The notes under the pieces were generated by a model. That model searched no databases. It was not told where the DNA came from and saw nothing but the letters and a program-made list of their open reading frames with translations. A stretch of 64,000 bases of DNA from Ignavibacteriota bacterium (lineage in GTDB: Bacteria; Bacteroidota; Ignavibacteria; UBA10030). Location of the stretch: the NCBI GenBank assembly GCA_963701295.1, contig OY969585.1, forward strand, positions 1,856,001 to 1,920,000. Direction: 5' to 3'. This document shows, piece after piece, positions 36,928 through 55,315 of the stretch. The translations under genes and the position numbers were made by a program. Position 1 is the first letter of the stretch. The number at the start of each line of letters is the position of its first letter.

Positions 36928-38946
36928 ATGAAAAATAAATACTGGTTTTTTGCAGCAGCCGTATTAACGATAGCACTTATTTTTACTCAGTCCCTTTTTT
37001 CACAAACCGCGTTACCACCACATTCTCGAAATCAAATTAGGTTTATCTCTCAACCGCCTCAATATGGTCAACGCGGCGTTCCTTATTCCTATACGGCTCA
37101 AGCCGTCACTGCAGACACCACTGCGGTTATCAACTATTGTGCTGGTATTCTCAATCCCATTGGGCTGACAATTGATTCGATATCGGGTGTTGTCAATTGG
37201 ATCCCTGCAGCGAAAGGATGGTATCCAATTACCCTGATAGCGAGGTCGAATAAAGGAGGCAATGCCGTCCAATCTTTTATGGTGACAGTAGTCGGCGGCA
37301 ATGGTATTGTGCAAGGACAAGTGACGGATACATCAGGTAATAGCATTTCTAATATTATTATCGAAGTGCTGCAAGTTTTAAGCACAGATCCTATTCCTCT
37401 CAATACTATTTCTATCAGTAATGAATGTTATTCATACTCCGCAAAAACAGATAAAAATGGAATGTATCGGATTTCTCATATTGATCCCGGTACGTATAAA
37501 GTACGTGCAGTATCACCTACGCCCCAGTATCTAAGCCAGTGGTATGATGGACAGTCTGACGCTAAGGATGCGAATACGATCACTATTTCCGATTCTTCTT
37601 CTAATACTCCCACCGTGGTCAATTTTTCTCTTCGCGGTATTGTCAGATTGCCAAAGATTGCTGTATCAGGTATTGTTACCGATACGAATCTTCTTCCAAT
37701 AAAAGTTGCGAATATCTTTTTTGTACGATCCGGATTTGCGTTGAATACTAAGGACACTGTTGACGACTTCCGAGAATATTTCAACATGAATGCTATGAAG
37801 GACGATTGCAGACTCGAAGGAAAATCGCAGAATGTATACAGCGCCAAAACCGACTCGTCCGGTACGTATTCGCTTCAGATTCCACAGGGATCATATATTG
37901 CCTTTGCCAAAGCTCGGGGATATGCAACGGAATTCTATTTGGGACAATCCGATCTGCTGTCGGCAAATCAGATAGTACTGACACATGACAGCGCAGGTAT
38001 CAACTTCGCGCTTGCGCAGCTTCCAAAGGTTGTTCTTGGTACAATCACAGGGAGCGTGCTCGATTCAGCACAAGGTATCGGTGTTCCTTCCCGAATTATT
38101 GCATCTCGAGATCGATGGACTGTGAAAGATAAATTTAACTGCTTCCGCTCTTACGTCGTTGATACAGATTCCCTTGGTACATTTTCAGTCGATTCATTAT
38201 TACCGGGATCGTACTTTGTGTTTGCAGTACCGCTAGGTAATTATTCTCCTGCTTTCTATTCAACAGATACTACAAGTATACGATGGAAGAGAGCAACCAG
38301 AGTGGATATTAGTGGGAACACTGTTAATGATATCGATATTTATGTGCACGAGATTCCTGATTCCATGAATGGGTACTCCAGTATTTCTGGCGCTGTTCGT
38401 TTTTCATCGGGTTCCATCTCAATGGCAGGAGCCCTTGTCTATGCAGCAAATCGGAATTCCGTAGTCTCAGGATATGCAATCACGGATGAGAAGGGGAATT
38501 ACAATATAGAAGGCCTGGTTCCCGGTGCATATACCGTGTCGGTCGATAAGGTAGGATATGAGACAGCATCACAATCTGCTACCGTTTCCTACAGTGCCGC
38601 AGGAAATCTAAACGCCACTGTCGACCTGTCAATCGATGAAGTAGCCACAGGTGTGGCCCAAACTTCTTCAACACAGCAGCCGACGCAATTCATGCTTGAA
38701 CAAAATTTTCCGAATCCATTCAATCCATCAACAACGATTAACTACACATTGAATCAATCTGGCATTGTTACGTTGAAGGTGTATAATCTTCTTGGCCAAG
38801 AAGTGCGCACATTGGTCAATGGATTCCAAAATGCAGGAAGTTATCATACGATGTTTAATGCGCAAGGACTTTCCAGCGGTATCTATTTCTATCGCTTAAA
38901 AAATCAAAACAGCATTCAGACTCGGAAAATGATTCTCTTACAATAA
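36928..38946 (+). CDS. Secreted protein: Ig/cadherin-like domain + several CarboxypepD_reg-like domains + T9SS type A C-terminal domain
   Basis: Signal peptide; GLTIDSISGVVNW; repeated TDxxGxY..PGxY; LEQNFPNPFNPSTTI..LSSGIYFYRL..KMILL. Confidence 0.85.
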   Translation: MKNKYWFFAAAVLTIALIFTQSLFSQTALPPHSRNQIRFISQPPQYGQRGVPYSYTAQAVTADTTAVINYCAGILNPIGLTIDSISGVVNWIPAAKGWYPITLIARSNKGGNAVQSFMVTVVGGNGIVQGQVTDTSGNSISNIIIEVLQVLSTDPIPLNTISISNECYSYSAKTDKNGMYRISHIDPGTYKVRAVSPTPQYLSQWYDGQSDAKDANTITISDSSSNTPTVVNFSLRGIVRLPKIAVSGIVTDTNLLPIKVANIFFVRSGFALNTKDTVDDFREYFNMNAMKDDCRLEGKSQNVYSAKTDSSGTYSLQIPQGSYIAFAKARGYATEFYLGQSDLLSANQIVLTHDSAGINFALAQLPKVVLGTITGSVLDSAQGIGVPSRIIASRDRWTVKDKFNCFRSYVVDTDSLGTFSVDSLLPGSYFVFAVPLGNYSPAFYSTDTTSIRWKRATRVDISGNTVNDIDIYVHEIPDSMNGYSSISGAVRFSSGSISMAGALVYAANRNSVVSGYAITDEKGNYNIEGLVPGAYTVSVDKVGYETASQSATVSYSAAGNLNATVDLSIDEVATGVAQTSSTQQPTQFMLEQNFPNPFNPSTTINYTLNQSGIVTLKVYNLLGQEVRTLVNGFQNAGSYHTMFNAQGLSSGIYFYRLKNQNSIQTRKMILLQ

Positions 38947-38980
38947 ATCACACACTTTTTTAGTCGTTTGGCATTTGAAG

Positions 38981-39015
38981 AGGGCTGTCTCGATCTGAGA
39001 CAGCCCTATTTTTTT
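38981..39015 (+). terminator. Intrinsic terminator
   Basis: AGGGCTGTCTC-GATCT-GAGACAGCCCT then ATTTTTTT. Confidence 0.85.
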
Positions 39016-39018
39016 CTA

Positions 39019-39038
39019 TAGCGGGGGAGGGATTGAAC
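39019..39038 (-). repeat. att-like copy of the tRNA-Met 3' end (distal island boundary)
   Basis: TAGCGGGGGAGGGATT, 16 bp identical to 53906-53921, then GAAC after a 1-nt gap. Confidence 0.8.
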
Positions 39039-39437
39039 TCAGTCTTAAATTCGAGACTCTTTTCAGTGATTTTCAATAAAAAACAAGAAATCATTAAGTT
39101 TGACATTACCATGCGATCTTACTATTAGCACATTATGGATATTGGGCTACTGGATGATCTTGGACTAAAAACATATATCTCTAGGCTAATATTACTTTCT
39201 ATATTAATAGAGTACATGAATAATCAAGAGGAGTATAAGATTATTTAAAACAGAAATTAAAAAAAAGAAGCCTATGATATTCATTAATATCTAACCGCAT
39301 ATCTATTGAAAAAAGGATCGATCCTATTTCTAAATGTACTTCTTATTCTCATTTTTCGGATTACCCATTGACTATCTTGATTTTAATGGCACAAAATAGT
39401 ATTTATGAATCGTTCTTAAAATAATTCAGGGTACATA

Positions 39438-39482
39438 TTGATAGAGAATAAATTTTCTGATACAATACAACATTGTGTTGTA
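39438..39482 (+). promoter_or_regulatory. Sigma70-type promoter with overlapping palindromic operator
   Basis: TTGATA-N17-TACAAT with TG extension; TACAACA-TTG-TGTTGTA inverted repeat at 39466-39482. Confidence 0.55.
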
Positions 39483-39516
39483 ATCAAACAATAATTCTCG
39501 GCCTTTCATCAATCCC

Positions 39517-40332
39517 ATGGAACTACACCAAAAATATTCCATCATCGAGGTTGCTCACCTTGTGAAGAAGTTTAAAGATTTCGCTGCGGTTGATAATATA
39601 TCGTTTTCTGTTGAAGCTGGAGAGATATTCGCGTTCTTGGGTCCCAATGGCGCAGGGAAATCCACGACCATCAAAATGCTTATTACGCTTCTTACACCTA
39701 CAAGCGGTACGGCTATAATTGATAGACACGATATTGCACATCATGCTTCCGAGGTACGTAAAACGATTGGTTATGTACCGCAGATGATTTCCGTGGATGG
39801 TACGCTCACAGCATACGAGAATCTTATGCTGATGGCGCGGCTCTACGATATTCCAAGAGCAGAGCGCAAAGAGCGCATCAAAGAGGTACTATTGTTTTTA
39901 AAGCTCGAGGAACAGACGGATTCACTTGTTAGAACGTTTTCCGGCGGTATGGTCCGCAAGATGGAAGTCGGGCAAGCCATGCTTCATCGTCCCAAAGTAT
40001 TGCTGCTCGACGAACCAACAACAGGACTTGATCCTGTTGCACGGCAAAATGTTTGGGAGCATCTTCTTGAGTTAAGGGACACCTTCGGTACGACTATCTT
40101 CTTCTCCACACATAATATGGAAGAAGCGGATGGAGTGAGCGATCGCATCGCTGTGATGAACAGGGGAACAATTGCTGCGATGGGGAATGCAGAAGAACTG
40201 AAGGCAAAAACCGGAAAGCTGAATGCCACGCTCGAAGAAGCTTTTATTTTCATTACCGGCAATAAGCTTCAGGAGACAGGCAACTTCCGAGAAATCCGCA
40301 GAGCAAGAAAAGTTGAACGAAGATTAGGATAG
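39517..40332 (+). CDS. ABC-2/DrrA-type exporter ATP-binding protein
   Basis: GPNGAGKST, FSGGM, LLLDEPTTGLDP, STH. Confidence 0.92.
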   Translation: MELHQKYSIIEVAHLVKKFKDFAAVDNISFSVEAGEIFAFLGPNGAGKSTTIKMLITLLTPTSGTAIIDRHDIAHHASEVRKTIGYVPQMISVDGTLTAYENLMLMARLYDIPRAERKERIKEVLLFLKLEEQTDSLVRTFSGGMVRKMEVGQAMLHRPKVLLLDEPTTGLDPVARQNVWEHLLELRDTFGTTIFFSTHNMEEADGVSDRIAVMNRGTIAAMGNAEELKAKTGKLNATLEEAFIFITGNKLQETGNFREIRRARKVERRLG

Positions 40333-40349
40333 ATGATCATCAAATAAAT

Positions 40350-41126
40350 ATGTTTTACTATTTATTACAGACAATTAAAAAATCTTACGTGCTCGCTGAG
40401 ACAGAAACGCGCAAACTTCTCCATGATCCGACGGAACTCATCTCGCGTGCGATACAACCGATTCTCTGGCTGGGCATTTTTGGCGAAGCGATGAGTAAGG
40501 TACGAGCGATTCAGACACAAGGGTTGACATATCTTCAGTTCATTGCACCGGGAATTCTTACACAATCCGTCGTATTCGTTGCCATCTTCTACGGTCTTTA
40601 TATTATCATGGACCGAGATACAGGTATATTACAAAAACTCCTGGTTACACCAACGCCGCGCCTCGCATTGGTTTGGGGTAAAATGATTTCTGCGGGCATA
40701 AGAGGCTTAAGCCAGGCGCTCATTGTTTTCCTTTTTGCTATTATCCTCGGCATTCAATTGAATATCACTTTCTGGTCTATCTTCGGAGTAATCATTATTG
40801 TCATGCTTGGTGCGGGTTTTTTCACTGGCCTTTCCATGATTATCGCCTCGATTGTGAAAACCAGAGAAAGGTTCATGGGAATCGGCCAAGTAATTACGCT
40901 GCCATTATTCTTTGCCTCGAATGCTATTTATCCAATTTCAATTATGCCTGCATGGCTTCAAGCAGTAGCGAACGTAAATCCATTAAGTTATATGGTAGAT
41001 GGATTGCGCGCGCTCATGCTCTCAGGAAATATTTCGGGAGTAGGTTTCGATATCGGCATACTTGCTACTGCCACACTGCTTATTTCAATACTCAGTGCAT
41101 GGTTTTATCCAAAGGTGGTGATATAA
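40350..41126 (+). CDS. ABC-2/DrrB-type permease
   Basis: YLQFIAPGI, DRDTG, PLFFASNAIYP, NPLSYMVDGLR. Confidence 0.9.
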   Translation: MFYYLLQTIKKSYVLAETETRKLLHDPTELISRAIQPILWLGIFGEAMSKVRAIQTQGLTYLQFIAPGILTQSVVFVAIFYGLYIIMDRDTGILQKLLVTPTPRLALVWGKMISAGIRGLSQALIVFLFAIILGIQLNITFWSIFGVIIIVMLGAGFFTGLSMIIASIVKTRERFMGIGQVITLPLFFASNAIYPISIMPAWLQAVANVNPLSYMVDGLRALMLSGNISGVGFDIGILATATLLISILSAWFYPKVVI

Positions 41127-41129
41127 ACT

Positions 41130-41702
41130 ATGGAAAATTTGACCATTGATAAATCAAAGACAGCATTGGTTGCCATCGATCTCCAAAAAGGTGTTGCCGG
41201 ACGACAAACTGTTCCATATGCACCCGATATTGTAATAAAAAATGCTGCAATGCTTGCGGAGGCATTTAGAAAAAATAGCATGCCTGTATTTTTGGTACGA
41301 GTGACTCCTTCGCTGGACGGGAAAGACGCGTTACGTCCTATTGCTGATGCGCGAAGGCCGATACAAACTCCTCCATCAGATTGGGCAGAAATTGTTCCAG
41401 AGATGGGGCCGAAGCAAAGTGATTTCGTGATCACCAAACATCAGTGGGGAGCTTTCTACGGTACAGAGCTTGATTTGGAATTTAGAAGACGCGGCATAAC
41501 AACAATGGTTCTGTGCGGAATAGCGACCAATTTTGGTGTTGAGAGCACAGCTCGATTTGCTTATGAGTATGGATACCAGCAAATATTTGCAGAAGATGCC
41601 ATGGCCGCTATGTCGGTCGAAGAACATACATTTCCGATCACAAAAATATTTCCGCGCATTGGACTTGTAAGGAAAACCTTAGAAATATTGGCTAGCTTGT
41701 AA
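41130..41702 (+). CDS. Isochorismatase-family hydrolase
   Basis: TALVAIDLQ, KHQWGAFYGTELD, GIATNFGVESTAR. Confidence 0.88.
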   Translation: MENLTIDKSKTALVAIDLQKGVAGRQTVPYAPDIVIKNAAMLAEAFRKNSMPVFLVRVTPSLDGKDALRPIADARRPIQTPPSDWAEIVPEMGPKQSDFVITKHQWGAFYGTELDLEFRRRGITTMVLCGIATNFGVESTARFAYEYGYQQIFAEDAMAAMSVEEHTFPITKIFPRIGLVRKTLEILASL

Positions 41703-41868
41703 TTTAGAAAAATCCTCGCAGGTACGCAAAGTAAAGAGGTACCTTAAAATTGTCCATACTAAGACCCTCGCCGCAGAGAAGAAGTTGTTGTAGAGGTTGA
41801 TCGGTTGAAGCATGAGATGGATAAACAGGTGACGAAGTATTAATATATTTAAAGAGGAGATGAAATAT

Positions 41869-42879
41869 ATGAACACACGATTTCTCGGAAATACCGGAGT
41901 AAGAGTCTCCGAACTTTGTTTCGGCGCTATGACTTTCGGCGGCAAGGGTTACTGGAAGAATATTGGACAGGTAGAACAGAAAGAAGCCGACGAACTGGTG
42001 AACACAGCAATAGAGGGTGGAATAAACTTCTTTGATACCGCGAACGTGTATTCTGAAGGACGGTCTGAAGAAATCCTCGGCAAAGCGCTCGGCAATAGGC
42101 GGAGAGACATTGTCCTCGCAACGAAGGTCAGAGGGAGAACTGGCACCGGCCCTAATGATGTTGGCCTTTCACGAAAGCACATTATCGATTCCTGCAATGC
42201 GAGTCTCAAGAGACTCGGCACAGATTACATAGATCTGTACCAGGTTCACAGTTTCGATCCATGGACTCCGCTTGATGAGACCCTCCGAACTCTTGATGAT
42301 TTAGTAAGGGAGGGGAAAGTAAGATACATCGGGGCGTCCAATTTTACGGGCTGGCAATTGATGAAAGCGCTAGCCATCTCCGAAAAACAAAACCTTGGGA
42401 AATTTGTAACGCTTCAGGCATTATATTCCCTGATCGCCCGCGACCTTGAGAACGAGCTTGTTCCGCTCTCGCTTGATCAAAAACTCGGGATTCTTCCCTG
42501 GAGTCCGTTGGGCGGTGGCTTTTTAACAGGAAAGTACCGACGCGGCATGCCGCGGCCGGAAGGTGCTAGAAGATCTGACCCGACCAATCAATTCCTCCAA
42601 TTCGATGAAGAAAAGGGATTCGACATTGTAGATGAGCTGGAGAAAATAACTCGTAACCATGGCACAACGATTACGCAGGCAGCGCTGAACTATCTGCTCA
42701 GGAAACCCGGTGTTACTTCAGTCATAATCGGCGCAAAAAATAAAGAGCAACTCACCGACAATCTCAAAACTGTTGATTGGGAGATGACCGCTGAAGAAGT
42801 CGTTCGACTCGATGAGTTGAGCAAGCCGCCTAAGGTGTATCCATACTGGATGCTCGAAAGGATGTCGATGGACAGATGA
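41869..42879 (+). CDS. Aldo/keto reductase
   Basis: GINFFDTANVY, ATK, LGTDYIDLYQVH, YIGASN, WSPLGGG; second ATG is better spaced from GAGGAG. Confidence 0.92.
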   Translation: MNTRFLGNTGVRVSELCFGAMTFGGKGYWKNIGQVEQKEADELVNTAIEGGINFFDTANVYSEGRSEEILGKALGNRRRDIVLATKVRGRTGTGPNDVGLSRKHIIDSCNASLKRLGTDYIDLYQVHSFDPWTPLDETLRTLDDLVREGKVRYIGASNFTGWQLMKALAISEKQNLGKFVTLQALYSLIARDLENELVPLSLDQKLGILPWSPLGGGFLTGKYRRGMPRPEGARRSDPTNQFLQFDEEKGFDIVDELEKITRNHGTTITQAALNYLLRKPGVTSVIIGAKNKEQLTDNLKTVDWEMTAEEVVRLDELSKPPKVYPYWMLERMSMDR

Positions 42880-42886
42880 GGTGTCA

Positions 42887-43657
42887 ATGAAACTCAAAGA
42901 TAAAATTGCAATTGTTACAGGTGGCGGGCGCGGAATCGGAAAAGCAATCGCCGAGGCCTTTGCCCGCGAAGGAGCGAACGTTGTCGTCACCGCAGCGCGG
43001 CAGAGAAACGAAATCGAACAGGTCGCGTCGAAAATTGGCGGCACCGCCGTCTTATCGAATGTTTCGAATAAAGACGATGTACGGAAACTTGTCGATTCTG
43101 TCGTCTCGGAATTCGGCAGAATCGACATACTGGTCAACAATGCCGCGCGAGGAATGAAATTTGTCAATGAGAGTTTTATGACGGAATCGAAGCCTTTCTG
43201 GGAAGCGGATCCTGACATGTGGCGGATGGTCATAGACACAAACATAAGCGGTGTTTTCCTGATAACTCGAGCAGTGATCCCTCACATGCTTGAGCAAAGA
43301 TTTGGAAGGATCATCAATATTTCGATTAATCATGAAACGATGAAGCGCAAAGGGTTCACTCCTTATGGTTCGTCTAAGGCAACGCTCGAATCGATGAGCG
43401 CTATCTGGGCACTGGAATTGGAAGGCACGGGAATAACTCTCAACGTCTTACTCCCCGGTGGGGCGACAAACACTGGAATGATTCCGGACACATTTCCAGA
43501 ACCTAAAAGAAAAGAGCTAATTGATCCCGCCATAATGGGACCGCCTGCAGTTTATCTGGCTTCAGATAATGCAAGTGGGATCAACGGACAACGGATAATT
43601 GCGATTGAATGGAAAGAACACAAAGTGACCAGCAATAAAAAAGCTTTTGAATTTTAA
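42887..43657 (+). CDS. Short-chain dehydrogenase/reductase
   Basis: TGGGRGIG, LVNNA, YGSSK (YxxxK). Confidence 0.9.
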   Translation: MKLKDKIAIVTGGGRGIGKAIAEAFAREGANVVVTAARQRNEIEQVASKIGGTAVLSNVSNKDDVRKLVDSVVSEFGRIDILVNNAARGMKFVNESFMTESKPFWEADPDMWRMVIDTNISGVFLITRAVIPHMLEQRFGRIINISINHETMKRKGFTPYGSSKATLESMSAIWALELEGTGITLNVLLPGGATNTGMIPDTFPEPKRKELIDPAIMGPPAVYLASDNASGINGQRIIAIEWKEHKVTSNKKAFEF

Positions 43658-43690
43658 GAATTACGAGTAAATATTTTAACGGAAGAAATA

Positions 43691-44677
<987 letters not shown>

Positions 44678-44876
44678 AACAAAATTAAAATGGGCTGCCC
44701 CAAAATTATATATCGATATTGAGTTAGTATATTTTCATTTTGATTGTGCTGTAATGATGTATACACGTCGAGACATCATATGGCATTTGTAGATTAAGCC
44801 GTAACAGTGAAATCGTGGGTTCGTAACTGGGTCATGAAAAAAAAGAGACCGAATCTTTTCAGAATCGGCCGAAAAA

Positions 44877-44885
44877 GTAGCGGGG
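44877..44885 (-). repeat. Short att-like remnant of the tRNA-Met 3' end
   Basis: GTAGCGGGG (as at 53905-53913) preceded by an A-run and imperfect hairpin, the same layout as beside the intact tRNA. Confidence 0.4.
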
Positions 44886-45552
44886 TCCGCCACGTACTGC
44901 CGGGAAAGACTCATATTTCTGCATCTCCTGCTGAAATCAGCACTTCAAAATGGGAAACATCCCCCTTTTCGTATCATAAGCATGCTTCTCGGTTAATTCG
45001 GTTAATAGAACCCTCTGCATCTGAGTTACAATCGCCTGAAACCAGAACACTCTTTTCTTGTATCTCTTTAATTACTGAAATCCTTTTAGAATAGGCATTC
45101 AATCGCTCGAATCGGAGCGGGATCAATACCTCAAGGACTTTGGTTCAAATAGATTCAGCTTTGTTCGTGAAATTGCAGAACGGGTTGTCGAACAAAATTC
45201 CAATATGACCAGAGTTAGCGAACGAAGTGAAGCTAACTATGTTGTCAAATTGAGGATCCCGCTAATGAGCATATCCCAAGAAAGCGGGACAATCAACTAA
45301 TTCAAAAACTCGAATCGCTGATAGGAGAGGGCGTGCCATTCTGACTTTATCTTACAAATACATTTCGCGTTTCCCCACCCTCATTATTTCAGATTTTTCC
45401 CTGTCGATAATGCAGCACTTGTGCCCATAAAAGGATTAATCCCTTTTTCATCCCTTAGACCTATTTCCGATTAAACAAATAGTCAGTATTCTTTTTAAAC
45501 TAAAAATATAAAGTGTTAACTCCTGAAGGTAGCTGGCAATATTCTTTTCGTT

Positions 45553-45686
45553 GCTTGACTAAAAATAAGTTGACGGATGAATCGGGGTAAAGAGAAGTAT
45601 TTATTGGATGAGATGTGTGGAATGTGAGATAGATGAAAAGGCGAAGAAGAATTGATATGCCGCAACTTATGCGCCATCCGTTAGGC
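45553..45686 (+). mobile_element. Solitary, left-degenerate integron attC-like site
   Basis: Ends in GTTAGGC (GTTRRRY); ATAAGTTG(A)CGG at 45565 pairs with CCGCAACTTAT at 45660 with one extrahelical base; no clean RYYYAAC. Confidence 0.5.
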
Positions 45687-45733
45687 GGCTAATATTGTGT
45701 AAAATATTTCATAATCATTTAGGGAAACATGAA

Positions 45734-47419
45734 ATGAAAACACACTTATTATTTCTATCATTTTACTTAGTTTTTTTTGCAAGTATTAGATTATTTGCTT
45801 TTAGCGGAAGCGGTTCTGGTACTTCCGGCGATCCGTATTTGGTTACATCAGCTTCACAAATTGATGAAGTGCGAAACAATCTAACTACTTATTACAAACA
45901 AACTATTGATATCGATATAAGCGGTTATTCTAACTGGTCGAAGATCGGAACAACTACAACCGCCGGTACTAATTTTATAGGTACTTATGACGGCAATGGG
46001 TATAAAATTACAGGACTTATTATTACTTCCACTACTGATAGCTACAACGGTTTATTCGGTGTTATAGGTTCTGGAGGAACAGTAAAAAATCTTGGTGTGA
46101 CAGGAGCAAGTGTATCCAGTAGTACTGCAGGACTTGGAATACTTGCAGGTTATAATTATGGAGGTACCGTTGAAAATTGTTATTCAACCGGTACTGTTAC
46201 AAGCAGCGGCAATAATGCCGGCGGGCTTCTTGGAACGACATCAGGTGCGGTGATGGAATGCTATTCTTCTGCAAACGTTACCGCAAATGGAACGTCTTCA
46301 ACAAATATTGGGGGCTTGATAGGAAACAGTAATTCGGGAGCTTCAATAAGCCAGTGCTATTGTACAGGGAATGTAATGAATAATGGTACAAGTGTTATTT
46401 CTATAACAGGGGGATTTATAGGAATTGCAAGTTGTTCTATAGATAATTGTTATTCATCTGGCAATGTTCAGAACAGCACTGGAAGGGCAGGAGGGTTTAT
46501 GGGTGGCACTGGCGCTAATACTCCTGCAATTACAAATTGTTATTCAGTAGGACATGTGACCGCCGCAACCCAAGGTGGTTTTGTTGGTTATTATAATACG
46601 GGTACTTTTACCAGTTGTTATTTCGATTCCGATAAAGCGGGAATGACAAATACTTATGGGGGATATGTGACTTCCGCCCCCACTGGCATAACAGCCAAAA
46701 CTACAGCAGAAATGAAAACGCAATCTACATTTACAGATGCCGGCGGGAATTTTACAACTACATGGGAAATTGTTTCAGGGTTTTATCCGCGATTAAAAAG
46801 TATTCCGGACCCTGCACTTCCTGTTGAGCTTACTTTTTTTATTGCATCCGTCAGCGGCAATACTGTTGCTCTACGTTGGAACACAGCAACCGAAGTGAAC
46901 AACTACGGCTTCGAGATCGAACGCCGAGCAATCGTCAATCAGAACCTCTCCATCTCCTCCCCTAATAGGGGAGGGCTAGGGTGGGGTTGTATTGGTTTTG
47001 TGGCTGGTAACGGGACGAGCAATGCACCAAAAGAATATTCATTTATGGATATTACAGGCGCTGCGGGAAGTTATGTTTATCGGCTAAAACAAATTGATCA
47101 GGACGGTTCTTTCAAATACTCTCAATCAGTTGAAGTTACTACACAAGCGCCGAAACAATTTTCGCTTGCTCAAAATTATCCGAATCCATTCAATCCCACT
47201 ACGACAATAGAGTTTACACTAGCAGAAAACAGCAATGTAACTCTCAAAATATTTGATATTCTTGGTCGGGAAGTGACAACGCTGGTTGATGGGGGACGAA
47301 AAGTGGGAGTATCTTATAAAGAAAACTTTGATGCTTCAAAATTGGCATCGGGATTATATTTCTATCGTTTACAAACAGAAAAGAATTCGTTGGTAAAAAA
47401 ACTGATGCTGCTAAAATAG
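45734..47419 (+). CDS. Secreted GLUG-repeat beta-helix protein with T9SS type A C-terminal domain
   Basis: Signal peptide; GTSGDPY, FIGTYDGNG, repeated GG(L/F)xG..CYS.G.V; LPVEL, LAQNYPNPFNPTTTI..LASGLYFYRL. Confidence 0.85.
   Translation: MKTHLLFLSFYLVFFASIRLFAFSGSGSGTSGDPYLVTSASQIDEVRNNLTTYYKQTIDIDISGYSNWSKIGTTTTAGTNFIGTYDGNGYKITGLIITSTTDSYNGLFGVIGSGGTVKNLGVTGASVSSSTAGLGILAGYNYGGTVENCYSTGTVTSSGNNAGGLLGTTSGAVMECYSSANVTANGTSSTNIGGLIGNSNSGASISQCYCTGNVMNNGTSVISITGGFIGIASCSIDNCYSSGNVQNSTGRAGGFMGGTGANTPAITNCYSVGHVTAATQGGFVGYYNTGTFTSCYFDSDKAGMTNTYGGYVTSAPTGITAKTTAEMKTQSTFTDAGGNFTTTWEIVSGFYPRLKSIPDPALPVELTFFIASVSGNTVALRWNTATEVNNYGFEIERRAIVNQNLSISSPNRGGLGWGCIGFVAGNGTSNAPKEYSFMDITGAAGSYVYRLKQIDQDGSFKYSQSVEVTTQAPKQFSLAQNYPNPFNPTTTIEFTLAENSNVTLKIFDILGREVTTLVDGGRKVGVSYKENFDASKLASGLYFYRLQTEKNSLVKKLMLLK
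46954..46988. repeat. GC-rich palindromic element inside the coding sequence
   Basis: CCTCCCCT-AAT-AGGGGAGG hairpin plus GCTAGGGTGGGG tail in an otherwise AT-rich gene. Confidence 0.6.
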
Positions 47420-47507
47420 ATGATGGATAACGGTACATGAAAAAAAAGGCTGAGAAAATATCCCAGCTATTTTCATTCTTCATTCTAAAATCTACCATCT
47501 GAAATCC

Positions 47508-47520
47508 TTTGTAGCGGGGG
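47508..47520 (-). repeat. att-like copy of the tRNA-Met 3' end (internal boundary)
   Basis: TTTGTAGCGGGGG identical to 53902-53914; adjacent 47534-47579 resembles 39035-39080. Confidence 0.7.
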
Positions 47521-47602
47521 GGCGAACTGTTGCGAACTCATACGCGAATTTGAAGCTCCTTTCAGCGATTTTATGTAAATTTCAACGAAAGTAATCTTTA
47601 AT

Positions 47603-47657
47603 TTGACTTTTTTTGAAACTTTTATTATAATTAGACCGTAATACGAATATAGTCGAA
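47603..47657 (+). promoter_or_regulatory. Sigma70 promoter and candidate TetR operator
   Basis: TTGACT-N17-TATAAT followed by the pseudo-palindrome TTAGACC-N13-AGTCGAA. Confidence 0.7.
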
Positions 47658-47666
47658 AGGACTAAA

Positions 47667-48239
47667 ATGAACAAAGATGATATTATCAGAGCCGAAATTT
47701 TAAAAGCTGCCGAATATGTTTTTCAGAAATGGGGATTGAATAAGACCACAATGGAGGATATTGCTCGCGAAGCAGGTAAAGGAAAAAGTACTCTTTATTA
47801 TTATTATCTGAGTAAAGAAGAAATATTTGATGCCGTAGTTATTGGTGAGTTTGCGCAGATACTTAAAAAAGCGAAAGAACTAGCGGAAGAAACAAAAACA
47901 GCAAAAGAAAGATTGATCAAATATATCGTCGAGTCGATTAATGAAATGAAAAACAGGGTCAGCACCTATACTATTGTACATGAAGAAATTAGGCGCAATC
48001 AAAATTTCATTAAAAAATTGCGCGATAAGTTTCAGGCACAAGAAGAAAGATACATCGAGGAGATATTGAAGGTTGGTTTGAAAAACAAAGAATTTACATT
48101 TATCGATAAAAGTGAAGTAACAACAGCTGCAAAAACAATCACAGGAATGATGCATGCGCTAGAGCTTTATTTGTTATTGGAAAATGATGATACCGCTCAA
48201 ATTGACATCGCTGCCCGTTTTATCGCAAATGGACTTTAA
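47667..48239 (+). CDS. TetR/AcrR-family transcriptional regulator
   Basis: TTMEDIAREAGKGKSTLYYYY.SKEE HTH. Confidence 0.92.
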   Translation: MNKDDIIRAEILKAAEYVFQKWGLNKTTMEDIAREAGKGKSTLYYYYLSKEEIFDAVVIGEFAQILKKAKELAEETKTAKERLIKYIVESINEMKNRVSTYTIVHEEIRRNQNFIKKLRDKFQAQEERYIEEILKVGLKNKEFTFIDKSEVTTAAKTITGMMHALELYLLLENDDTAQIDIAARFIANGL

Positions 48240-48257
48240 GTTTTTTTTTGTCAATAA

Positions 48258-48284
48258 TTCGACCATAATACCGTATTGGTCTAA
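48258..48284. promoter_or_regulatory. Second candidate TetR operator
   Basis: TTCGACC-N13-GGTCTAA, an inverted version of the 47631-47657 site. Confidence 0.55.
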
Positions 48285-48303
48285 TAATCCAAAGGATACA
48301 ATT

Positions 48304-49341
48304 ATGAAAAATAAAAAGAATCAACTTGTCATTTTCTTTATTGGAATCGCACTTTCTGTGTGTGGCTGTTCCGGTAATTCTGGCGATCAAAATAATACTT
48401 CTGTTAAGGTTCAGGTTGAAAAAGTAAAACCCGCCGATGTAAGTCAGGAGCTTTCATACAGCGGCACCATCGAAGAATCCGAAACCATTCCGCTTAGTTT
48501 TTCTTCGGTAGGAACTGTGTCGAAAGTATTTGTTTCCGAAGGTGCAATTGTAAGGAAGGGACAAATCCTTGCGGAATTAGACAATGCAACGTATCAAAAT
48601 ACCTATGCTATGATGCATGCGTCCGAGGAGCAGGCAGAAGATGCTTTTAAACGCTTAACGCCGATGCATAATAATGGTAATCTGCCGGATGTAAAATATG
48701 TAGAAGTGGAAACCGGCTTGCAAAAAGCAAAAGCGGGAGCATCCATTGCAAGGAAAAATTTGGATGACTGCAAGTTATATGCAACCACCGATGGACATAT
48801 CGGTAAACGATCCATCGAGCCCGGCATGACCGCTATGCCGAACCTCACTTCGATTACGATTGTGAAAATAAACAAAGTGTTTGCCCGTGTATCGGTTTCG
48901 GAGAATGAAATTGCACAAATTCACAAAGGGCAAAAAGCAAATATAACAATTGGCGCATTGGGATCTGTGATCTATAATGGCGTGGTGGAAGAAATCGGTG
49001 TTGTTGCGGACCCAATAGCACATTCGTATAAAATAAAAATTGGAATAGAGAACAAAGATTTATCCATCAAGCCGGGGATGATCTGTTCTACAATCATTGA
49101 AAGCCCAAACGCATTCCACGGTGTCGTTGTTCCGAGCAGAGCGGTTATGATCGATGAGTCGGGAAAGAATTTTGTATATGTCGTTTCATCACAAAACAAA
49201 GCAATGCGCAAATATATTCTCACCGGTCAGTTGCTGAACAGCGGTATTGAAGTACTGGATGGATTACAAATGAACGATACGATCGTTGTGGAAGGCCAAC
49301 ATAAACTCATTGAAAACGCCTTTGTGCAAATTGTGAATTAA
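48304..49341 (+). CDS. RND efflux membrane fusion protein
   Basis: ATG 48304 after AAGGA; possible lipobox VCGC; V.EG..V.KGQILA.LD; IKPGM; I..GL..ND.IVVEG. Confidence 0.9.
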   Translation: MKNKKNQLVIFFIGIALSVCGCSGNSGDQNNTSVKVQVEKVKPADVSQELSYSGTIEESETIPLSFSSVGTVSKVFVSEGAIVRKGQILAELDNATYQNTYAMMHASEEQAEDAFKRLTPMHNNGNLPDVKYVEVETGLQKAKAGASIARKNLDDCKLYATTDGHIGKRSIEPGMTAMPNLTSITIVKINKVFARVSVSENEIAQIHKGQKANITIGALGSVIYNGVVEEIGVVADPIAHSYKIKIGIENKDLSIKPGMICSTIIESPNAFHGVVVPSRAVMIDESGKNFVYVVSSQNKAMRKYILTGQLLNSGIEVLDGLQMNDTIVVEGQHKLIENAFVQIVN

Positions 49342-52300
49342 TGGCAAACGGAAAGTACATGAAAATGGAAAAGAAACTTACATTGCTCGAAAGGCTTCTG
49401 CGGTACAAACAGGTGCTGTATATTTTTTCTGTGATCGCCGTTCTTATAGGAGTTGTGGCCCTCTTCCAGATGCCGCGCGATGAATATCCAACATTTACTG
49501 TACCAACAGGTCTCATCGTTGGTGTGTTCCCTGGTGCCTCTTCTCATCAGGTAGAAGAACAATTGACAGCTAAAGTAGAGAATTATCTGTTCCAGTATAA
49601 GTCGGTTGATCGCTCCAAGACGTATTCCGTTTCAAAAGAGAACGTCATGCTCATTTACGTTCAGGTCTCAGATGCTGAAAAGGATAAAGATGGATTTTGG
49701 GCGAAATTGCGCCATGGCTTGAATGATTTGAAAGTAGAACTGCCTGCCGGAGTAACTTCTTTGACAGCGGATAATGATTTCGGTAGTACGTCTGCAATGC
49801 TGCTTGCCGTTCAGTCTGAGACAAAGACATATAAAGAACTTGAAAATTATATTAAATCTTTTGAAGACGATGTTCGTAAAGTACCGTCGGTCTCTAAAGT
49901 AAAACATTACGGCCTACAGAAAGAACAAATCAGTATTTACATGGATGATGCCAAGCTCGCTAATTATGGCATAAAACCTATTCAGGTCCTTATTGCTCTT
50001 AAGCCGCAAAGCACCGTAAATTATGTGGGGGAGATAGATGATGGTAAATATGTGCGTCCGATCCATATTACCTCAAACCTTAAAACCGAACAGGATGTAG
50101 CCAGCCAAATTATTTATTCCGATCCGCAAGGCAATGTTGTACGCGTCAAGGATATTGCAAAAGTAGTGCGTGAATATGAGGATATGGATTCCTATATCCG
50201 TGTCAACGGAAAAAAATGCCTGCTTGTTTCGCTTGAAATGAAATCAGGGGAGAATATTGTCCAATTTGGTGATGCAGTACAAAAAGCCATTGATAAGTTC
50301 TCTGTCATACTTCCACCTGATATAAAGATCATCACTATTTCCAATATCCCCAATGTCGTGTCGAAAGCTATTGCAAATTTTCTCAAAGAATTTGCCATTG
50401 CAATGTTAGCTGTAATATTGGTTACTGTCCTTCTGCTTCCATTAAGAGTTGCCCGTATTGCGGCAATGTCAATTCCAACTTCTATACTGACAGCTATCGG
50501 GATCATGTGGATAAATGGAATAGAGCTGCAAACCGTTTCACTAGCAGGTTTAATTATTGTCCTTGGTATCACTGTGGATGATGCTATCGTTATAGTCGAT
50601 AATTATATAGAGAAGTTGGATCAGGGTATGACCCCGTTCGATGCTGGAACAAAAAGTGTAACCCAGCTCTTTAGTTCCGTGCTTTCCGCTACGCTTATTA
50701 TCATAGCGTGTTTTTTGCCGATGCCGATATTTATGACCGGTCAGGGTGGAGATTTTATCCAATCACTTCCGACGACCATTATGTATGCATTGCTCATATC
50801 ATTGCTGCTTTCAGTCTCTATTATACCCTTGTTAAGTTACACATTCATTAAAACAGGTATAAAAGGTAATTCATTTAAAAAAGGGAAAGTGACATTTCTC
50901 GATAGACTTCAGAAATTTTATAACGGACTTCTTGAGAAAGCGTTTAAAAGGAAAAAACTGGTGGTCCTTGCAGGTGGTCTTTCGTTCATCACAGGACTTG
51001 CATTGATTGCGGTTACTCCGCAGCAGTCATTCCCAAAACTTGAAAGGAACCAGTTTGCAGTGGAAGTATTTCTGCCCATCGGAAGTTCTCTGCAAAAAAC
51101 AGATTCTGTTATCACAGATCTTGAGGGAATACTTCAAAAAGACTCGCGCGTTCAAGTCGTGACGTCATTTATTGGAACAAGCTCACCACGTTTTAATGCT
51201 CTCTATGCACCCAATTTTCCTGCAAAGAATTATGGTCAATTGGTTGTGGTCACGGAATCGAACAAGGCTACAGTTGAAATTCTCGACGAGTACAGCAAGA
51301 AATTGGAAGGCAAATATCCCCTTGCCAATATAAAATGGAAGCAATTGGCTTTCGAAATATTCAAGGCTCCAATTGAGATCCGTATTTCGGGAGACAGCAT
51401 CCAAACCAACAAACAGACAGCAAATCGTGTCTCTGATATTTTGCGGCAATTCAAGGATCTCGAATTCATACGCACTGATTATGAACAACCTTTGCAATCT
51501 GCCGATCTGGTCGTAAGGAGAGATGAAGCAGCGCGGATTGGTTATTCGAATTCGCTTCTGGCTTATTCGCTTATGGTGGGAACCAAAGGATTCCCGATCT
51601 CAACCGTATGGGAAGGAGATTATCCCGTTATTGTGAAGTTAAAAATCAATAAAAAGATCAAATCCAGTCCCAGTGATATCATGAATCAATATGTGACCTC
51701 TCCATTTATGTTCTCCTCTGTTCCGGTTCGTCAGTTGGCAACAATAAAGCCAGGTTGGACAGAAGGAGAAATTGTGCGGCGTAACGGAGTACGAACCATA
51801 ACTGTTTTTGCAGAAATAAAAAGAGGATTACTTCCTGCAACGATATTTAGTAAAATCAAACCTCTTGTCGATAAAATGGACTTGCCTCCCGGCGTTTCGA
51901 TCGAATACGGCGGCGATTATCAAATGAGCATTGAGAATATTACGCCGATGTACTATTCACTTATAGTAAGTATCACCCTGATATTTCTTATCCTTATGTT
52001 TCAATTCAAGAATATTAAAACAACGCTTTTGATCATGGTGACGCTCCCGCTAAGTGTCTTCGGCGTCGCGTTTGGTGTGTTTGTAACAGGATATCCATTC
52101 GGGACAACGGCGTTTATTGGATTGATCGGCTTAATGGGAATCGTTGTACGAAATGGAGTAATATTTGTTTCGTATGCAGAAGAACTTCGTTACGAGCATG
52201 GACATTCATTAGAAGAAGCGGCGATCTCGGCAGGTAAGAGAAGAATGCGTCCGATATTTCTTACTTCGGCCGCTGCCGCAGTAGGCGTTATTCCGATGAT

Positions 52301-52454
52301 TGTGAGCGGTTCTTCGCTGTGGGGACCGCTTGGTACTGTAATATGTTTCGGGCTGCTTTTTGCACTTGTGCTCTCATTGCTGGTGCTGCCCGTGCTGTAC
52401 TATTTGTTCCACAGAAAAGATTTTGAAAAAGTTGAAGAAAGTGAGACACTATGA
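49341..52454 (+). CDS. RND efflux permease (AcrB-like)
   Basis: PRDEYP, GITVDDAIVIVDN, GIVVRNG, RMRPIFLTS; 1037 aa. Confidence 0.93.
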   Translation: MANGKYMKMEKKLTLLERLLRYKQVLYIFSVIAVLIGVVALFQMPRDEYPTFTVPTGLIVGVFPGASSHQVEEQLTAKVENYLFQYKSVDRSKTYSVSKENVMLIYVQVSDAEKDKDGFWAKLRHGLNDLKVELPAGVTSLTADNDFGSTSAMLLAVQSETKTYKELENYIKSFEDDVRKVPSVSKVKHYGLQKEQISIYMDDAKLANYGIKPIQVLIALKPQSTVNYVGEIDDGKYVRPIHITSNLKTEQDVASQIIYSDPQGNVVRVKDIAKVVREYEDMDSYIRVNGKKCLLVSLEMKSGENIVQFGDAVQKAIDKFSVILPPDIKIITISNIPNVVSKAIANFLKEFAIAMLAVILVTVLLLPLRVARIAAMSIPTSILTAIGIMWINGIELQTVSLAGLIIVLGITVDDAIVIVDNYIEKLDQGMTPFDAGTKSVTQLFSSVLSATLIIIACFLPMPIFMTGQGGDFIQSLPTTIMYALLISLLLSVSIIPLLSYTFIKTGIKGNSFKKGKVTFLDRLQKFYNGLLEKAFKRKKLVVLAGGLSFITGLALIAVTPQQSFPKLERNQFAVEVFLPIGSSLQKTDSVITDLEGILQKDSRVQVVTSFIGTSSPRFNALYAPNFPAKNYGQLVVVTESNKATVEILDEYSKKLEGKYPLANIKWKQLAFEIFKAPIEIRISGDSIQTNKQTANRVSDILRQFKDLEFIRTDYEQPLQSADLVVRRDEAARIGYSNSLLAYSLMVGTKGFPISTVWEGDYPVIVKLKINKKIKSSPSDIMNQYVTSPFMFSSVPVRQLATIKPGWTEGEIVRRNGVRTITVFAEIKRGLLPATIFSKIKPLVDKMDLPPGVSIEYGGDYQMSIENITPMYYSLIVSITLIFLILMFQFKNIKTTLLIMVTLPLSVFGVAFGVFVTGYPFGTTAFIGLIGLMGIVVRNGVIFVSYAEELRYEHGHSLEEAAISAGKRRMRPIFLTSAAAAVGVIPMIVSGSSLWGPLGTVICFGLLFALVLSLLVLPVLYYLFHRKDFEKVEESETL

Positions 52455-53794
52455 AAAAGTATATTATAATTTGCTTGATCTGGATATGTGCGTTTCCTGT
52501 TTTTGCTCAGCGAGCGTTGACATTGGACGAAAGCAAACAGCTTGCACTGCAGAACAACGCTAAGATAAAAAATGGCGCGCTGGAAATAGAGTCAACGCAG
52601 CAAACAAAAAAGGCAGCGTTCACAAATTTCTTTCCATCAATCAGTGCCAGCGGAGCAATGTTTGAAGCGCAGAAGAACTTAATGGAAATATCTACGCAAG
52701 GCGGTAATCTTCCTATCTATGATGGAAAAGACCTTGCTGCTCTTTCTACGGCAACACAGTTTGCGTATATGCCGGCTTCAACTATGGGATTGCTGAAATC
52801 GGGAACGTTCGGTATGGTTACGGCCGTGCAGCCGATCTTTGCCGGTGGCAGAATCTGGAATGGCAATAAACTTGCGTCACTGGGCGAAGATATCAGCGAG
52901 TACAAGAACCGGCTTTCCCGAAACGAAGTGATTCTGAAGACAGAAGAACAGTATTGGTTGGTGGTATCATTGAATGAAAAATTCAAAACCATACAACGAT
53001 ATGAAGAACTGTTAAACGATTTATTAGCGCAAGTAGAAGATGCTTATAAATCCGGTGTGGCAATGAAAAACGATCTGCTCAAGGTAAAAGTGAAGCGTAG
53101 TGAAGTTCTTCTCAATAAATCAAAATTGGAAAATGGCCGAAAACTCGCAACAATGGCGTTTTGCCAGTATATCGGCATCCCGTTCGATTCGGCATTGGTG
53201 TTAAAGGACTCGTTAGTGGTAAATCAACTTCCTCAAACATATTTCATCGATCATTCTGCGGCACTTAACAATAGATCGGAATATCATTTGTTGCAAGCAT
53301 CTGTACGAGCAGAGGAATTACAGACCAATATAAAACTTGGAGAGTATTTACCACAAGCCGGTATCGGCGTGAGCGGCCTGTATATGAAGTTGGATGAAGG
53401 AAAAGATCGAACTATTGGAATGGTTTTTGGTACTGTTTCTATTCCGATTTCTGATTGGTGGAGTGCATCGCACACTCTGCAGGAGCAGAGCATTAAAGAA
53501 CAGATTGCGCAGAACATGATGAAGGACAACTCGGAATTACTGCTGCTGCAAATGCAAAAAGCTTGGCAAGATTTATCCGATGCATACAAACAATTATTAT
53601 TGAGTGAAGAAGCAAAAGCGCAGGCAGAAGAAAATCTAAAAGTGAACCAAGATAGTTTTAATAATGGTATGAGCAATCTTTCTGATTTACTGGAAGCGCA
53701 GGCGCTGCTGCAGCAGATGAATGATCAGTTGATAGATGCCAGGGCAGGATATCGAAGTAAGCAGATTATGTACTTGCAGGTAACAGGAAGATAG
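52451..53794 (+). CDS. TolC-family outer membrane efflux protein
   Basis: Signal peptide, ALQNN, FFPSIS, QPIFAGG, SIPISDW, DLLEAQ. Confidence 0.9.
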   Translation: MKKYIIICLIWICAFPVFAQRALTLDESKQLALQNNAKIKNGALEIESTQQTKKAAFTNFFPSISASGAMFEAQKNLMEISTQGGNLPIYDGKDLAALSTATQFAYMPASTMGLLKSGTFGMVTAVQPIFAGGRIWNGNKLASLGEDISEYKNRLSRNEVILKTEEQYWLVVSLNEKFKTIQRYEELLNDLLAQVEDAYKSGVAMKNDLLKVKVKRSEVLLNKSKLENGRKLATMAFCQYIGIPFDSALVLKDSLVVNQLPQTYFIDHSAALNNRSEYHLLQASVRAEELQTNIKLGEYLPQAGIGVSGLYMKLDEGKDRTIGMVFGTVSIPISDWWSASHTLQEQSIKEQIAQNMMKDNSELLLLQMQKAWQDLSDAYKQLLLSEEAKAQAEENLKVNQDSFNNGMSNLSDLLEAQALLQQMNDQLIDARAGYRSKQIMYLQVTGR

Positions 53795-53869
53795 CCGTCT
53801 ATTTTCATATTCTATATTTTATTTTTTGCACAAGTTTAAGTCGTAGGTTTGTATCGGGGTGAAGAAAAT

Positions 53870-53904
53870 AAAAAGGCGAATTCAAAACGGATTCGCCTTT
53901 TTTT
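53870..53904. terminator. Bidirectional intrinsic terminator between the tolC-like gene and tRNA-Met
   Basis: AAAAAGGCGAAT...ATTCGCCTTTTTTT. Confidence 0.8.
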
Positions 53905-53905
53905 G

Positions 53906-53979
53906 TAGCGGGGGAGGGATTCGAACCCACGACCTGCGGATTATGATTCCGACGCTCTAACCAGCTGAGCTACCCCGCC
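53906..53979 (-). tRNA. tRNA-Met (CAT), elongator-type
   Basis: Reverse complement GGCGGGG-TA-GCTC..GAGC-G-TCGGA-ATCATAA-TCCGC-AGGTC-GTGGG-TTCGAAT-CCCTC-CCCCGCT-A; CCA not encoded. Confidence 0.9.
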
Positions 53980-54238: not shown

Positions 54239-55315
54239 TCACTTAAACATCCAGAGCAAATAGCCGTAGCCATCCTTTTCCAGCTCTTCCTTCGGGATGA
54301 AGCGAAGAGAAGCGGAGTTGATACAGTACCGTAAATGTGTTGGTATTGGTCCATCATTGAAGACATGACCCAAATGTGAATCGCCGTTCTTACTTCGCAC
54401 TTCAATTCGTTCCATCGGCAATGAGGCGTCTTTTTTCTTAATGAGGAATCTTGGGTCAATTGGCTTCGTAAAACTCGGCCAGCCTGTTCCCGAGTCAAAT
54501 TTGTCGTTGGAACTGAACAACGGTTCTCCAGAGACGATATCAACATAAATTCCTTCTTTATGATTATTCCAATAGGCATTGTGAAAAGGAGGTTCTGTGC
54601 CGCACTGTTCTGTTACTTGATATTGCAGATCGGTTAAATTCTTTTTCAATTCTTCTTTTTTAGGTTTCTTATATTTTTCTAATCCAATCTCTCCCCAGAC
54701 CGCTTTAATGTATCGGTCTCTCCCTGAGGCGCTTCTATAACTATAATATCGAGTTGGATTTTTTTTACAATATTGTTGATGATAACTTTCCGCAGGATAA
54801 AATTTCGAAGCTTTAATAATTTTTGATGCAATAGGTTTATCGAAAATGCCTGATTGTTCAAGTTCCTTTTTTGATGAATCTGCAATGGTTCTCTGCTTGT
54901 CATTATGATAGAATATTGCGGATTGGTATTGGGAGCCTCGGTCCACAAACGAACCGCCTTCATCTGTTGGATCGATTTGCCGCCAAAAAATATCAACAAG
55001 TTCTGAATAACTGATAATATCAGGATCGAAGGAAATCTGAACAGCTTCATAATGCCCGCTTGTGCCGGAACATACTTCTTCGTATGTCGGATTCAGTGTT
55101 TTCCCGCCAGTATATCCGGAAGTAACACTCTTGACGCCATCCAGTTCGCTGAATGCTGCATCTGTACACCAAAAGCAACCTCCAGCGAACGTTGCAGTAT
55201 CGAGTCCTTTATCGTTTTGAGGTACTATTTGTGTTTCCATAACTTTTAAGTCAGTTTTAGCGCAACATGAAAGAAAAGGGAGAATCATTGTAAACAGCAA
55301 CGTTAGTTTTTTCAT
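54239..55315 (-). CDS. msrAB: Bifunctional peptide-methionine sulfoxide reductase MsrA/MsrB, probably exported
   Basis: [34 protein letters not shown]; N-terminal signal/lipobox-like FLSC. Confidence 0.95.

Follow-up and report, generated by a model that had tools for sequence, protein, structure and literature searches.

Recombinase-less islands in tandem at tRNA-Met of an Ignavibacteriota genome, probably inserted by large serine recombinases with the att site in their own last codons

Genes and repeats behind tRNA-Met

The window analysed here is a 64,000-nucleotide stretch of an Ignavibacteriota bacterium genome (contig OY969585.1 of assembly GCA_963701295.1, forward-strand positions 1,856,001 to 1,920,000), in which three blocks of cargo genes follow one another behind a tRNA-Met gene and are separated by copies of that tRNA's 3' end. 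We argue that these blocks very probably form a tandem array of recombinase-less islands, inserted serially by large serine recombinases (LSRs) whose attachment (att) site lies within their own last codons. The genome of the window, hereafter G000, is a single contig and 99% complete; it was compared at the tRNA-Met locus with 30 relatives, and order-level scans covered 277 genomes from 110 genera. The target of integration, tRNA-Met(CAT), occupies 53905-53979 on the minus strand, was called by both ARAGORN and Rfam (where it was the only match in the scan) and is presumably of the elongator rather than the initiator type. On its far side lies msrAB (54239-55315, minus strand), which adjoins tRNA-Met in relatives G001, G009 and G010 too, while the distal chromosomal flank (36928-39010, plus strand) consists of a gene for a protein with a type IX secretion system (T9SS) domain and a terminator hairpin (38978-39010).

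Three units lie between these flanks, all assigned to the plus strand. Unit 1 (39019-44877), farthest from the tRNA, is an ABC/oxidoreductase block with genes for an ABC ATPase (39517-40332), an ABC-2 permease (40350-41126), an isochorismatase-family hydrolase (41130-41702) and, flanking a short-chain dehydrogenase/reductase (42881-43657), two aldo-keto reductases (41860-42879 and 43691-44677). Unit 2 (44878-47511) holds a gene for a protein with a GLUG motif and a T9SS C-terminal domain (45695-47419). Unit 3 (47512-53905), which has no recombinase gene, is an RND block encoding a TetR regulator (47667-48239), an RND adaptor of the membrane fusion protein type (48184-49341), an RND permease (49341-52454) and a TolC-type channel (52451-53794). 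Composition showed no clear GC shift across the array.

Exact matches to the tRNA-Met 3' end, in the orientation of the tRNA, occur at 39019-39034 (16 bp), 44877-44885 (9 bp) and 47508-47520 (13 bp), and all three fall between gene blocks, as an earlier sequence-only reading of this DNA had reported. The core shared by all repeats is only 8-9 bp, TAGCGGGG(G); the 16-bp match is exact, as that reading had it, but is partly coincidental, having been lengthened by a 6-nt in-frame deletion in the adjoining arm that is not present in G001, G004, G009 and G010. The 9-bp copy at 44877, ranked there as the weakest, is not in doubt, as it has conserved arms on either side. By an order-4 Markov model, 15 kb of one strand of this genome should contain the 8-mer TAGCGGGG 0.036 times, and three copies in 15 kb have P ~1e-5 (Poisson), well above the background frequency that the same reading had named as its refutation. 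Chance matches, or terminator-associated repeats with no role in recombination, are thus an explanation to which we give next to no weight: the core is short, its 26 copies genome-wide exceed the expected 17.5 only modestly and hairpins precede several of them, but the local expectation, the conserved arms on both sides and the homology breakpoints at the core all speak against it. On sequence grounds the repeats are att junctions, that is, scars of serial integration, and lie far above chance.

Junction geometry

Each junction joins a core to an arm. The distal, attR-like junction (39019-39079, plus strand) has the core and an R-type P arm, which carries the 6-nt in-frame deletion and reads as a tail SGGGIELSLKFETLFSDFQ followed by a stop; its anchor at 39019 is common to G001, G004, G009 and G010. 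The junction at 44878-45094 (plus strand) has a core one G short and an R3-type P arm, whose 71-residue tail ends in SLITEILLE and a stop and is open and conserved in the relatives checked. At 47512-47578 (plus strand) the core is again followed by an R-type P arm, with the motif CGAACTCAT 12 nt from GG and an in-frame tail SGGANCCELIREFEAPFSDFM ending in a stop (47513-47578). Finally, the tRNA-proximal, attL-like junction (53840-53914) has a left end related to the arm that we call arm A (profile match, E 0.002), comprising a degenerate inner T-arm motif (53840-53851) and a hairpin with U-run (53875-53897), the hairpin being a predicted terminator of the tRNA transcript (z -3.6), and then the core TAGCGGGGG.

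Spacing between the motif CGAAC(C/T)C and GG, measured over 272 core-like sites, was 7 nt in tRNAs (38 sites) and 12 nt in both R arms (11 sites) and the recombinase ends of the G011 type described below (6 sites). The difference is that expected of serine integrases, in which the motif for the zinc ribbon domain lies 5 bp closer to the crossover in attB than in attP, according to the part of PMC3783163 drawn on here. The tRNA-Met T-arm is therefore likely to be a B half-site, the GG at 53913-53914 lying 7 nt from its motif CGAACCCAC, and we place the putative crossover at GG because the arms leave the tRNA sequence there and because of the 5-bp shift. Two of the window junctions have arms with attP-type spacing in relatives; the 12-nt P-type spacing is absent from the arm A hairpin and from the R3 arm.

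A family of large serine recombinases in relatives

The array itself lacks a recombinase gene, as the sequence-only reading had noted: there are no tyrosine recombinase matches in the window (14 PF00589 matches lie elsewhere in G000) and no PF07508 or PF00239 match in the complete G000 genome. Searches of G000 for a helper with PF07508, PF00239, profile A1 and tblastn returned none, save matches to tails or tRNA read-through. The recombinase beside the same core, for which that reading had suggested searching the genome, was found instead in relatives. In G005, G007, G011 and G012 (in the last as two frames) an LSR of 584-591 residues with catalytic, recombinase and zinc-ribbon domains (PF00239, PF07508 and PF13408) points at tRNA-Met, and its frame crosses the core into the antisense strand of the tRNA. 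The best fold matches were serine integrase-att complexes (E 8e-22), and the best NCBIfam match of the family was CcrB (E 4e-27 and 5e-40, far below the cut-off). A search with a three-sequence profile placed the family in 61 of the 277 genomes of the order, not including G000, at 53 GTDB loci, in records titled Ignavibacteria or Bacteroidota, and on three viral contigs. The viral contigs (L207-L209) were considered as candidate circles and rejected, L207 being a linear piece with terminase-like genes and no evidence of a circle; among the best 15 of 513 records, no phage relative of the LSR exceeded 27% identity.

When duplicates and matches short of the C-terminal part were dropped, 57 distinct gene ends were kept from 85 loci. 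An antisense tRNA overlaps or adjoins 42 of them (22 Met, 9 Leu, 8 Glu, 2 Pro and 1 Asn), 12 are without a tRNA and 3 lie at a contig end, as judged by tRNA scan only. Several of the 12 tRNA-less ends read into the arm of a neighbouring element, with tails such as SGGRKIELLTELHHVITVPLPH (locus L168). L168 and L139 (G088:C3) are tandem copies of one recombinase, which end in a P-arm tail and in tRNA-Met, respectively. Shortened LSR 3' remnants of differing length occur in G002, G006 and G008, and broken LSR genes in G008 and G012; judged by their sequences, the remnants represent recombinase loss in progress, bearing out the repeated integrase loss that had been proposed for this locus. The stretch G002:C4:517059-535201 is bounded on one side by an R arm and on the other by an LSR 3' remnant that shares 90% identity with the G011 enzyme, which ties the R arm to a G011-type enzyme on one contig. 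The LSR family is thus the likely maker of the array.

Tyrosine-integrase elements, which would have built the array as at other tRNAs of G000, are a very improbable source. Tyrosine recombinases do lie near other tRNAs in this genome, one arm A in G010 is 234 bp from a tyrosine integrase gene and an XerC/D-like gene sits inside an element of G005. That G010 integrase, however, lies behind its own tRNA-Glu 3' remnant, an integrase profile run on the relatives' arrays detected nothing but the G005 gene and a fragment of 83 residues, and the 2-bp crossover geometry, the 5-bp shift and the in-frame tails fit serine enzymes.

The G005 element (L041, G005:C19:2120-13855) carries recombinase, AAA/STAND, RadA-like, YdjM, PolX-thumb, Lin1244_N and XerD-like genes, with no relaxase or capsid match in Pfam or NCBIfam; related gene sets occur in G008, G011 and G012. 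At another locus (L166) the recombinase frame continues into a T9SS C-terminal domain.

Coding tails at the junctions

The R arm that adjoins two of the cores (39019 and 47512) on their right side translates, in the recombinase frame, as SGGx...E(A/T)(P/L)FSDF-stop. Fourteen of 15 R arms are stop-free over 21 codons in this frame, compared with 5 and 2 of 15 in the other two frames, and in 13 of the 15 a stop follows codon 21. As read from the sequence, every junction of the window retains a short tail in frame, like those that LSRs in tandem arrays read into, and these tails likely broke off a serine recombinase gene. The earlier description of the array holds in part; neither the recombinase family nor the split-off coding tails were in it.

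Arm A, a recombinase-free left end

The left ends of the units present a different picture. Arm A is the ~65-bp end to the left of the core at 44878 (44813-44877), with a variant form left of 53906, and consists of a repeat of the T-arm motif of the tRNA (TCGTGGGTTCG, 44813-44823), an A-run and a hairpin (44847-44870) with a GAAA loop and a U-run on the minus strand, which looks like a terminator acting on the tRNA strand. One explanation for such an end is that the units are dedicated non-autonomous cassettes, in which arm A is a maintained left end that captures operons with any P arm and is moved by helpers in trans, a possibility that we consider doubtful. It accords with the breadth of the pattern, which was found in 56 of the 277 genomes and 28 of the 110 genera, where the reversed control gave 0, and in 32 metagenome loci, although the search pattern partly builds in the conservation of the hairpin. 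It also accords with the absence of a recombinase fragment upstream of arm A in all 55 junctions (searched up to 1.8 kb, 52 of them over at least 1 kb), the likeness ending ~70 bp from the core, and with the several copies of arm A per array and the core-to-core mini-units of 100-330 bp that occur. The RND units of G000 and G012, moreover, have both ends alike, neither with a recombinase, and are 95% identical. Conversely, arm A combines with several unrelated P arms, its hairpin has no P-type motif at 12 nt, the R arm beside the G012 RND unit belongs to the recombinase-bearing type, so that carriage in cis explains the unit's transfer equally, and no circle or event in trans was seen. Of the two routes that the sequence-only reading had offered, serial capture mobilised in trans is the one to which these recombinase-free ends would lend some evidence.

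No autonomous form of arm A was found among the 32 metagenome, 30 order or 85 recombinase loci; just one of the 85 contains an arm A, and that copy is distant from the end of the gene; viral contigs gave no match. Apparent arm A matches to L166 as an autonomous form proved to be the T9SS tail domains of its fused frame. In five junctions (G001, G002, G004, G009 and G012) the R arm directly follows the inner motif and the hairpin is gone, which fits either the inner motif acting as a half-site or a plain 55-bp loss between direct repeats. We make no claim that the inner motif tracks the adjacent tRNA type, since the 14 junctions compared gave a mixed picture, with several of them mismatched. 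A variant in which the inner core segment is inverted was observed at L077, L083, L084, L088, L089, L096 and L104. In the literature we found no account of the LSR family in Ignavibacteria or of a conserved recombinase-free end, most subscription journals lying outside the coverage.

What is new here is the order-wide occurrence of arm A with no adjoining recombinase, together with an RND block 95% identical to that of a diverged relative. It is tempting to go further and see in arm A the mark of order-wide, integron-like non-autonomous cassettes (with an end of ~60 bp on either side, an inbuilt terminator for the tRNA and an extra B-type half-site as landing pad) that capture whole operons and ride on tRNA-targeting LSRs, the integration and excision of which would be switched by the swap of a folded C-terminal strand through their own att site; this we regard as speculative and somewhat unlikely.

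Variable cargo and horizontal transfer

Serial integration is further supported by the variability of the locus. In G010 both flanks lie on one contig and enclose a different array of 43.5 kb, linked to that of the window by three short matches only (two arms and one domain end). The junction and arm at 39019 are kept in G001, G004, G009 and G010, where other genes come next, and G003, G008 and G013 have the flank gene with no core. The different module sets anticipated in relatives were thus found, whereas the empty site also anticipated, with the distal flank directly beside tRNA-Met, was not seen among the 30.

That the blocks are mobile units is indicated for one of the three. Homology of the RND block begins exactly at 47508 in G001, G004, G009 and G012 and at 47552 in G005, and the upstream neighbourhoods differ among these five. 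Its identity to the G012 copy is 94.7% over 6.4 kb, whereas the core genes thrS, infC, rplT, pheS, msrAB and lysE are 71-86% identical; within the block, tetR alone is 83% identical. The block was thus probably transferred horizontally and is somewhat mosaic. No att-bounded counterpart of the ABC/oxidoreductase or the GLUG block was found elsewhere; in G005 the ABC and hydrolase genes of unit 1 lie separately, and no full-length DNA match to the GLUG gene was seen among the relatives' loci compared.

Plain decay would account for some of these observations. By this explanation, which we hold to be possible yet improbable, the units are dead relics of independent recombinase losses, with their cargo fixed in place and reshuffled only by homologous recombination between arms. 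The LSR remnants of differing length and the broken genes of G002, G006, G008 and G012 agree with it, as do the damaged window cores (one G short at 44878, a deletion at 39019), the lack of a helper in G000 and the two units of three that were not seen elsewhere as units. It sits less easily with an RND unit that has exact ends in five upstream contexts and a transfer signal, all with no recombinase, and with an arm A boundary that is fixed rather than ragged.

As a side observation, positions 45659-45689, just 5' of the GLUG/T9SS gene, match the 3' half of an integron attC-like repeat. Dozens of such repeats are clustered elsewhere in G000, which has an integron-integrase-like gene at C1:3566706-3567665, and the GLUG/T9SS gene may be a former integron cassette within unit 2. 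Short repeats in the same unit (45121-45342 and 45428-45493) have counterparts at G000:C1 2503782-2503896 and at several positions between 1.63 and 1.68 Mb.

A model of serial integration

Serial insertion by LSRs with the att site in their own last codons would proceed as follows. A circular element would recombine at the GG of TAGCGGG|GG, whereby its left end would restore the last 7 bases of the tRNA and supply a terminator. The last 20-70 codons of the enzyme would be severed in the process and left at the far end. Each newcomer would then shift older units away from the tRNA, and this outward push gives an age order, from old to young, of ABC/oxidoreductase (unit 1, likely the oldest), GLUG and RND (unit 3, likely the youngest). 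The units would have lost, or never had, the body of the recombinase and would move only with a helper, in cis or in trans; G000 being without one, the array is likely frozen now.

Several findings weigh against this model. No recombinase among the 57 gene ends finishes in arm A, so that the enzyme for the left ends of the window was not found, and the recombinase-free surroundings of arm A described above count on the same side; the left end at 47440-47511 resembles no arm type at all. Among cargo, RND genes occur with no intact arms in G011 (two copies) and G014, and in G001, G004 and G009 the three oxidoreductases lie at a locus that has no arms and is unrelated to this one. Excised circles, which the sequence-only reading had proposed to seek, were not seen in the sequencing runs, none of which contained half of the search words. 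The evidence from the tails is qualified too. Codon variants in the R arms number 12 synonymous against 44 non-synonymous, with the three codon positions varying about equally, so selection on the tail would be weak or relaxed and its constraint modest. The tail motif occurs in 24 of 70 non-tRNA arms, compared with 1.5 +/- 1.2 in shuffles and 3 in the third frame, but was drawn from the same arms in which it was counted, and these arms are kin. In favour of the model, AlphaFold2 predicted the P-arm tail of L168 as a strand (residues 584-590, pLDDT ~79) and gave pLDDT <50 over the last 13 residues of the same enzyme ending in the tRNA; the alignments behind the two runs differed (39 and 27 rows).

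A single candidate for a circle was rejected: the one contig obtained from 4 of the 21 runs, at depth 2.8, joins 53919 to 47550 with other letters between, fits a tandem neighbour equally well and was not counted.

If insertion by LSRs is correct, the family is a likely engine of operon turnover at tRNA-Met in this uncultured Ignavibacteria-like lineage, and it would explain how bacteria with no enzyme of their own swap whole operons. A family aimed at universal tRNA ends through a 9-bp core could also serve as a source of integration tools.

Further arrays

A second array in G000 (C1 1793326-1811585), with the same core and arm types and core-to-core mini-units of 157 bp and ~300 bp, lies behind the other tRNA-Met, which is likely the initiator. 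Met-type cores with arms also occur far from any tRNA-Met at C1 2400894-2464183 and 2764470-2819490, two of them with long tRNA 3' remnants, and we consider these arrays orphaned or relocated. In G010 a 33-kb att-bounded block of genes for carbohydrate use (G010:C16:28533-61372, L011-L013) lies at tRNA-Met, with its best matches (up to 96% amino acid identity) at G000:C1:2273369-2312901, beside tRNA-Asp.

Comparison with known systems

Integron cassette arrays are a poor likeness: we found only one attC-like half, inside unit 2, and the borders of the units are tRNA cores. In the myxophage Mx8, which has a tRNA as its target, the gene for Int, a tyrosine enzyme, contains the att site.

The archaeal suicidal integrases of SSV1, pTN3 and pT26-2, as covered in the consulted part of a review (PMC8371274), likewise have att inside the integrase gene at a tRNA target, and their excision is aided by the intact gene of another element. 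Those enzymes are tyrosine recombinases and split off the catalytic half, whereas here only 20-70 C-terminal residues would be lost; the same review calls self-disrupting recombinases exclusive to archaea. SCCmec and the Enterococcus cassette chromosome (PMC6222049) share with our array cassettes made by LSRs and several attR sites but, in the sections of that source on which we rely, have rlmH as target, a CcrAB pair and no split gene. In the Tycheposons of Prochlorococcus (bioRxiv 10.1101/2020.12.28.424599), newcomers at a tRNA push older elements inward and leave partial tRNAs, and the cargo is ecologically useful. From the portion of the preprint used, 910 of 937 employ tyrosine recombinases and Tycheposons have their own integrase and often replication genes, unlike the units of the window, which have neither an integrase nor a replication module and so fall outside that group.

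Closer parallels are found among cis-mobilizable elements (CIMEs), which have lost integration and transfer genes, kept attL and attR and become stacked by later integration (Guedon et al. 2017, PMC5704250, in part). The window units are similarly att-flanked at the end of a target gene with no integration or transfer genes of their own. As to an origin by decay, the R arms link to a recombinase-bearing element type, and arm A had no autonomous form in 55 junctions. The known serine-recombinase integrative and mobilizable elements treated in the portion of that review used disrupt dispensable genes, whereas the LSR elements described here would restore the tRNA end and cut their own gene.

The closest system is that of the Dehalococcoides ssrA islands, which stand in tandem behind the 3' end of a stable RNA and are separated by short direct repeats (McMurdie et al. 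2011, PMC3146451; the statements on DsiB here rest on part of that text). Their recombinase, DsiB, is a CcrB-like LSR of ~540 residues encoded beside the RNA gene, the dsiB 3' end overlaps the att site, and the authors suggested that dsiB is perhaps complete only on the circle or in tandem. Fifteen of the islands have no integration module. The layout of our array is thus already known, a variant of known island stacking, and recombinase-less tandem units are not the rarity for which they had been taken at first. Compared by description, the two systems share a CcrB-like LSR with its 3' end over the att site, here in relatives rather than in the window. They differ in target (tRNA-Met, with Leu, Glu, Pro and Asn also used by the family, as against tmRNA) and in core (9 bp as against 20), and of the six-gene DsiB module (dsiB, dsiA, recF-like, parB, mom and a large protein) no dsiA, parB or mom match was found among the scanned genes of the G005 element, the one element covered. 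Beyond what the consulted text reports for the DsiB islands, the tails here show conservation and have a predicted fold, and the order as a whole has a recurrent left end with no recombinase. On the sequence evidence, then, the array is of the split-LSR kind and akin to the ssrA/DsiB islands, its units being CIME-like and without a recombinase, and the question open for DsiB since 2011, whether an att-crossing tail controls the recombinase, has in L139 and L168 a natural pair.

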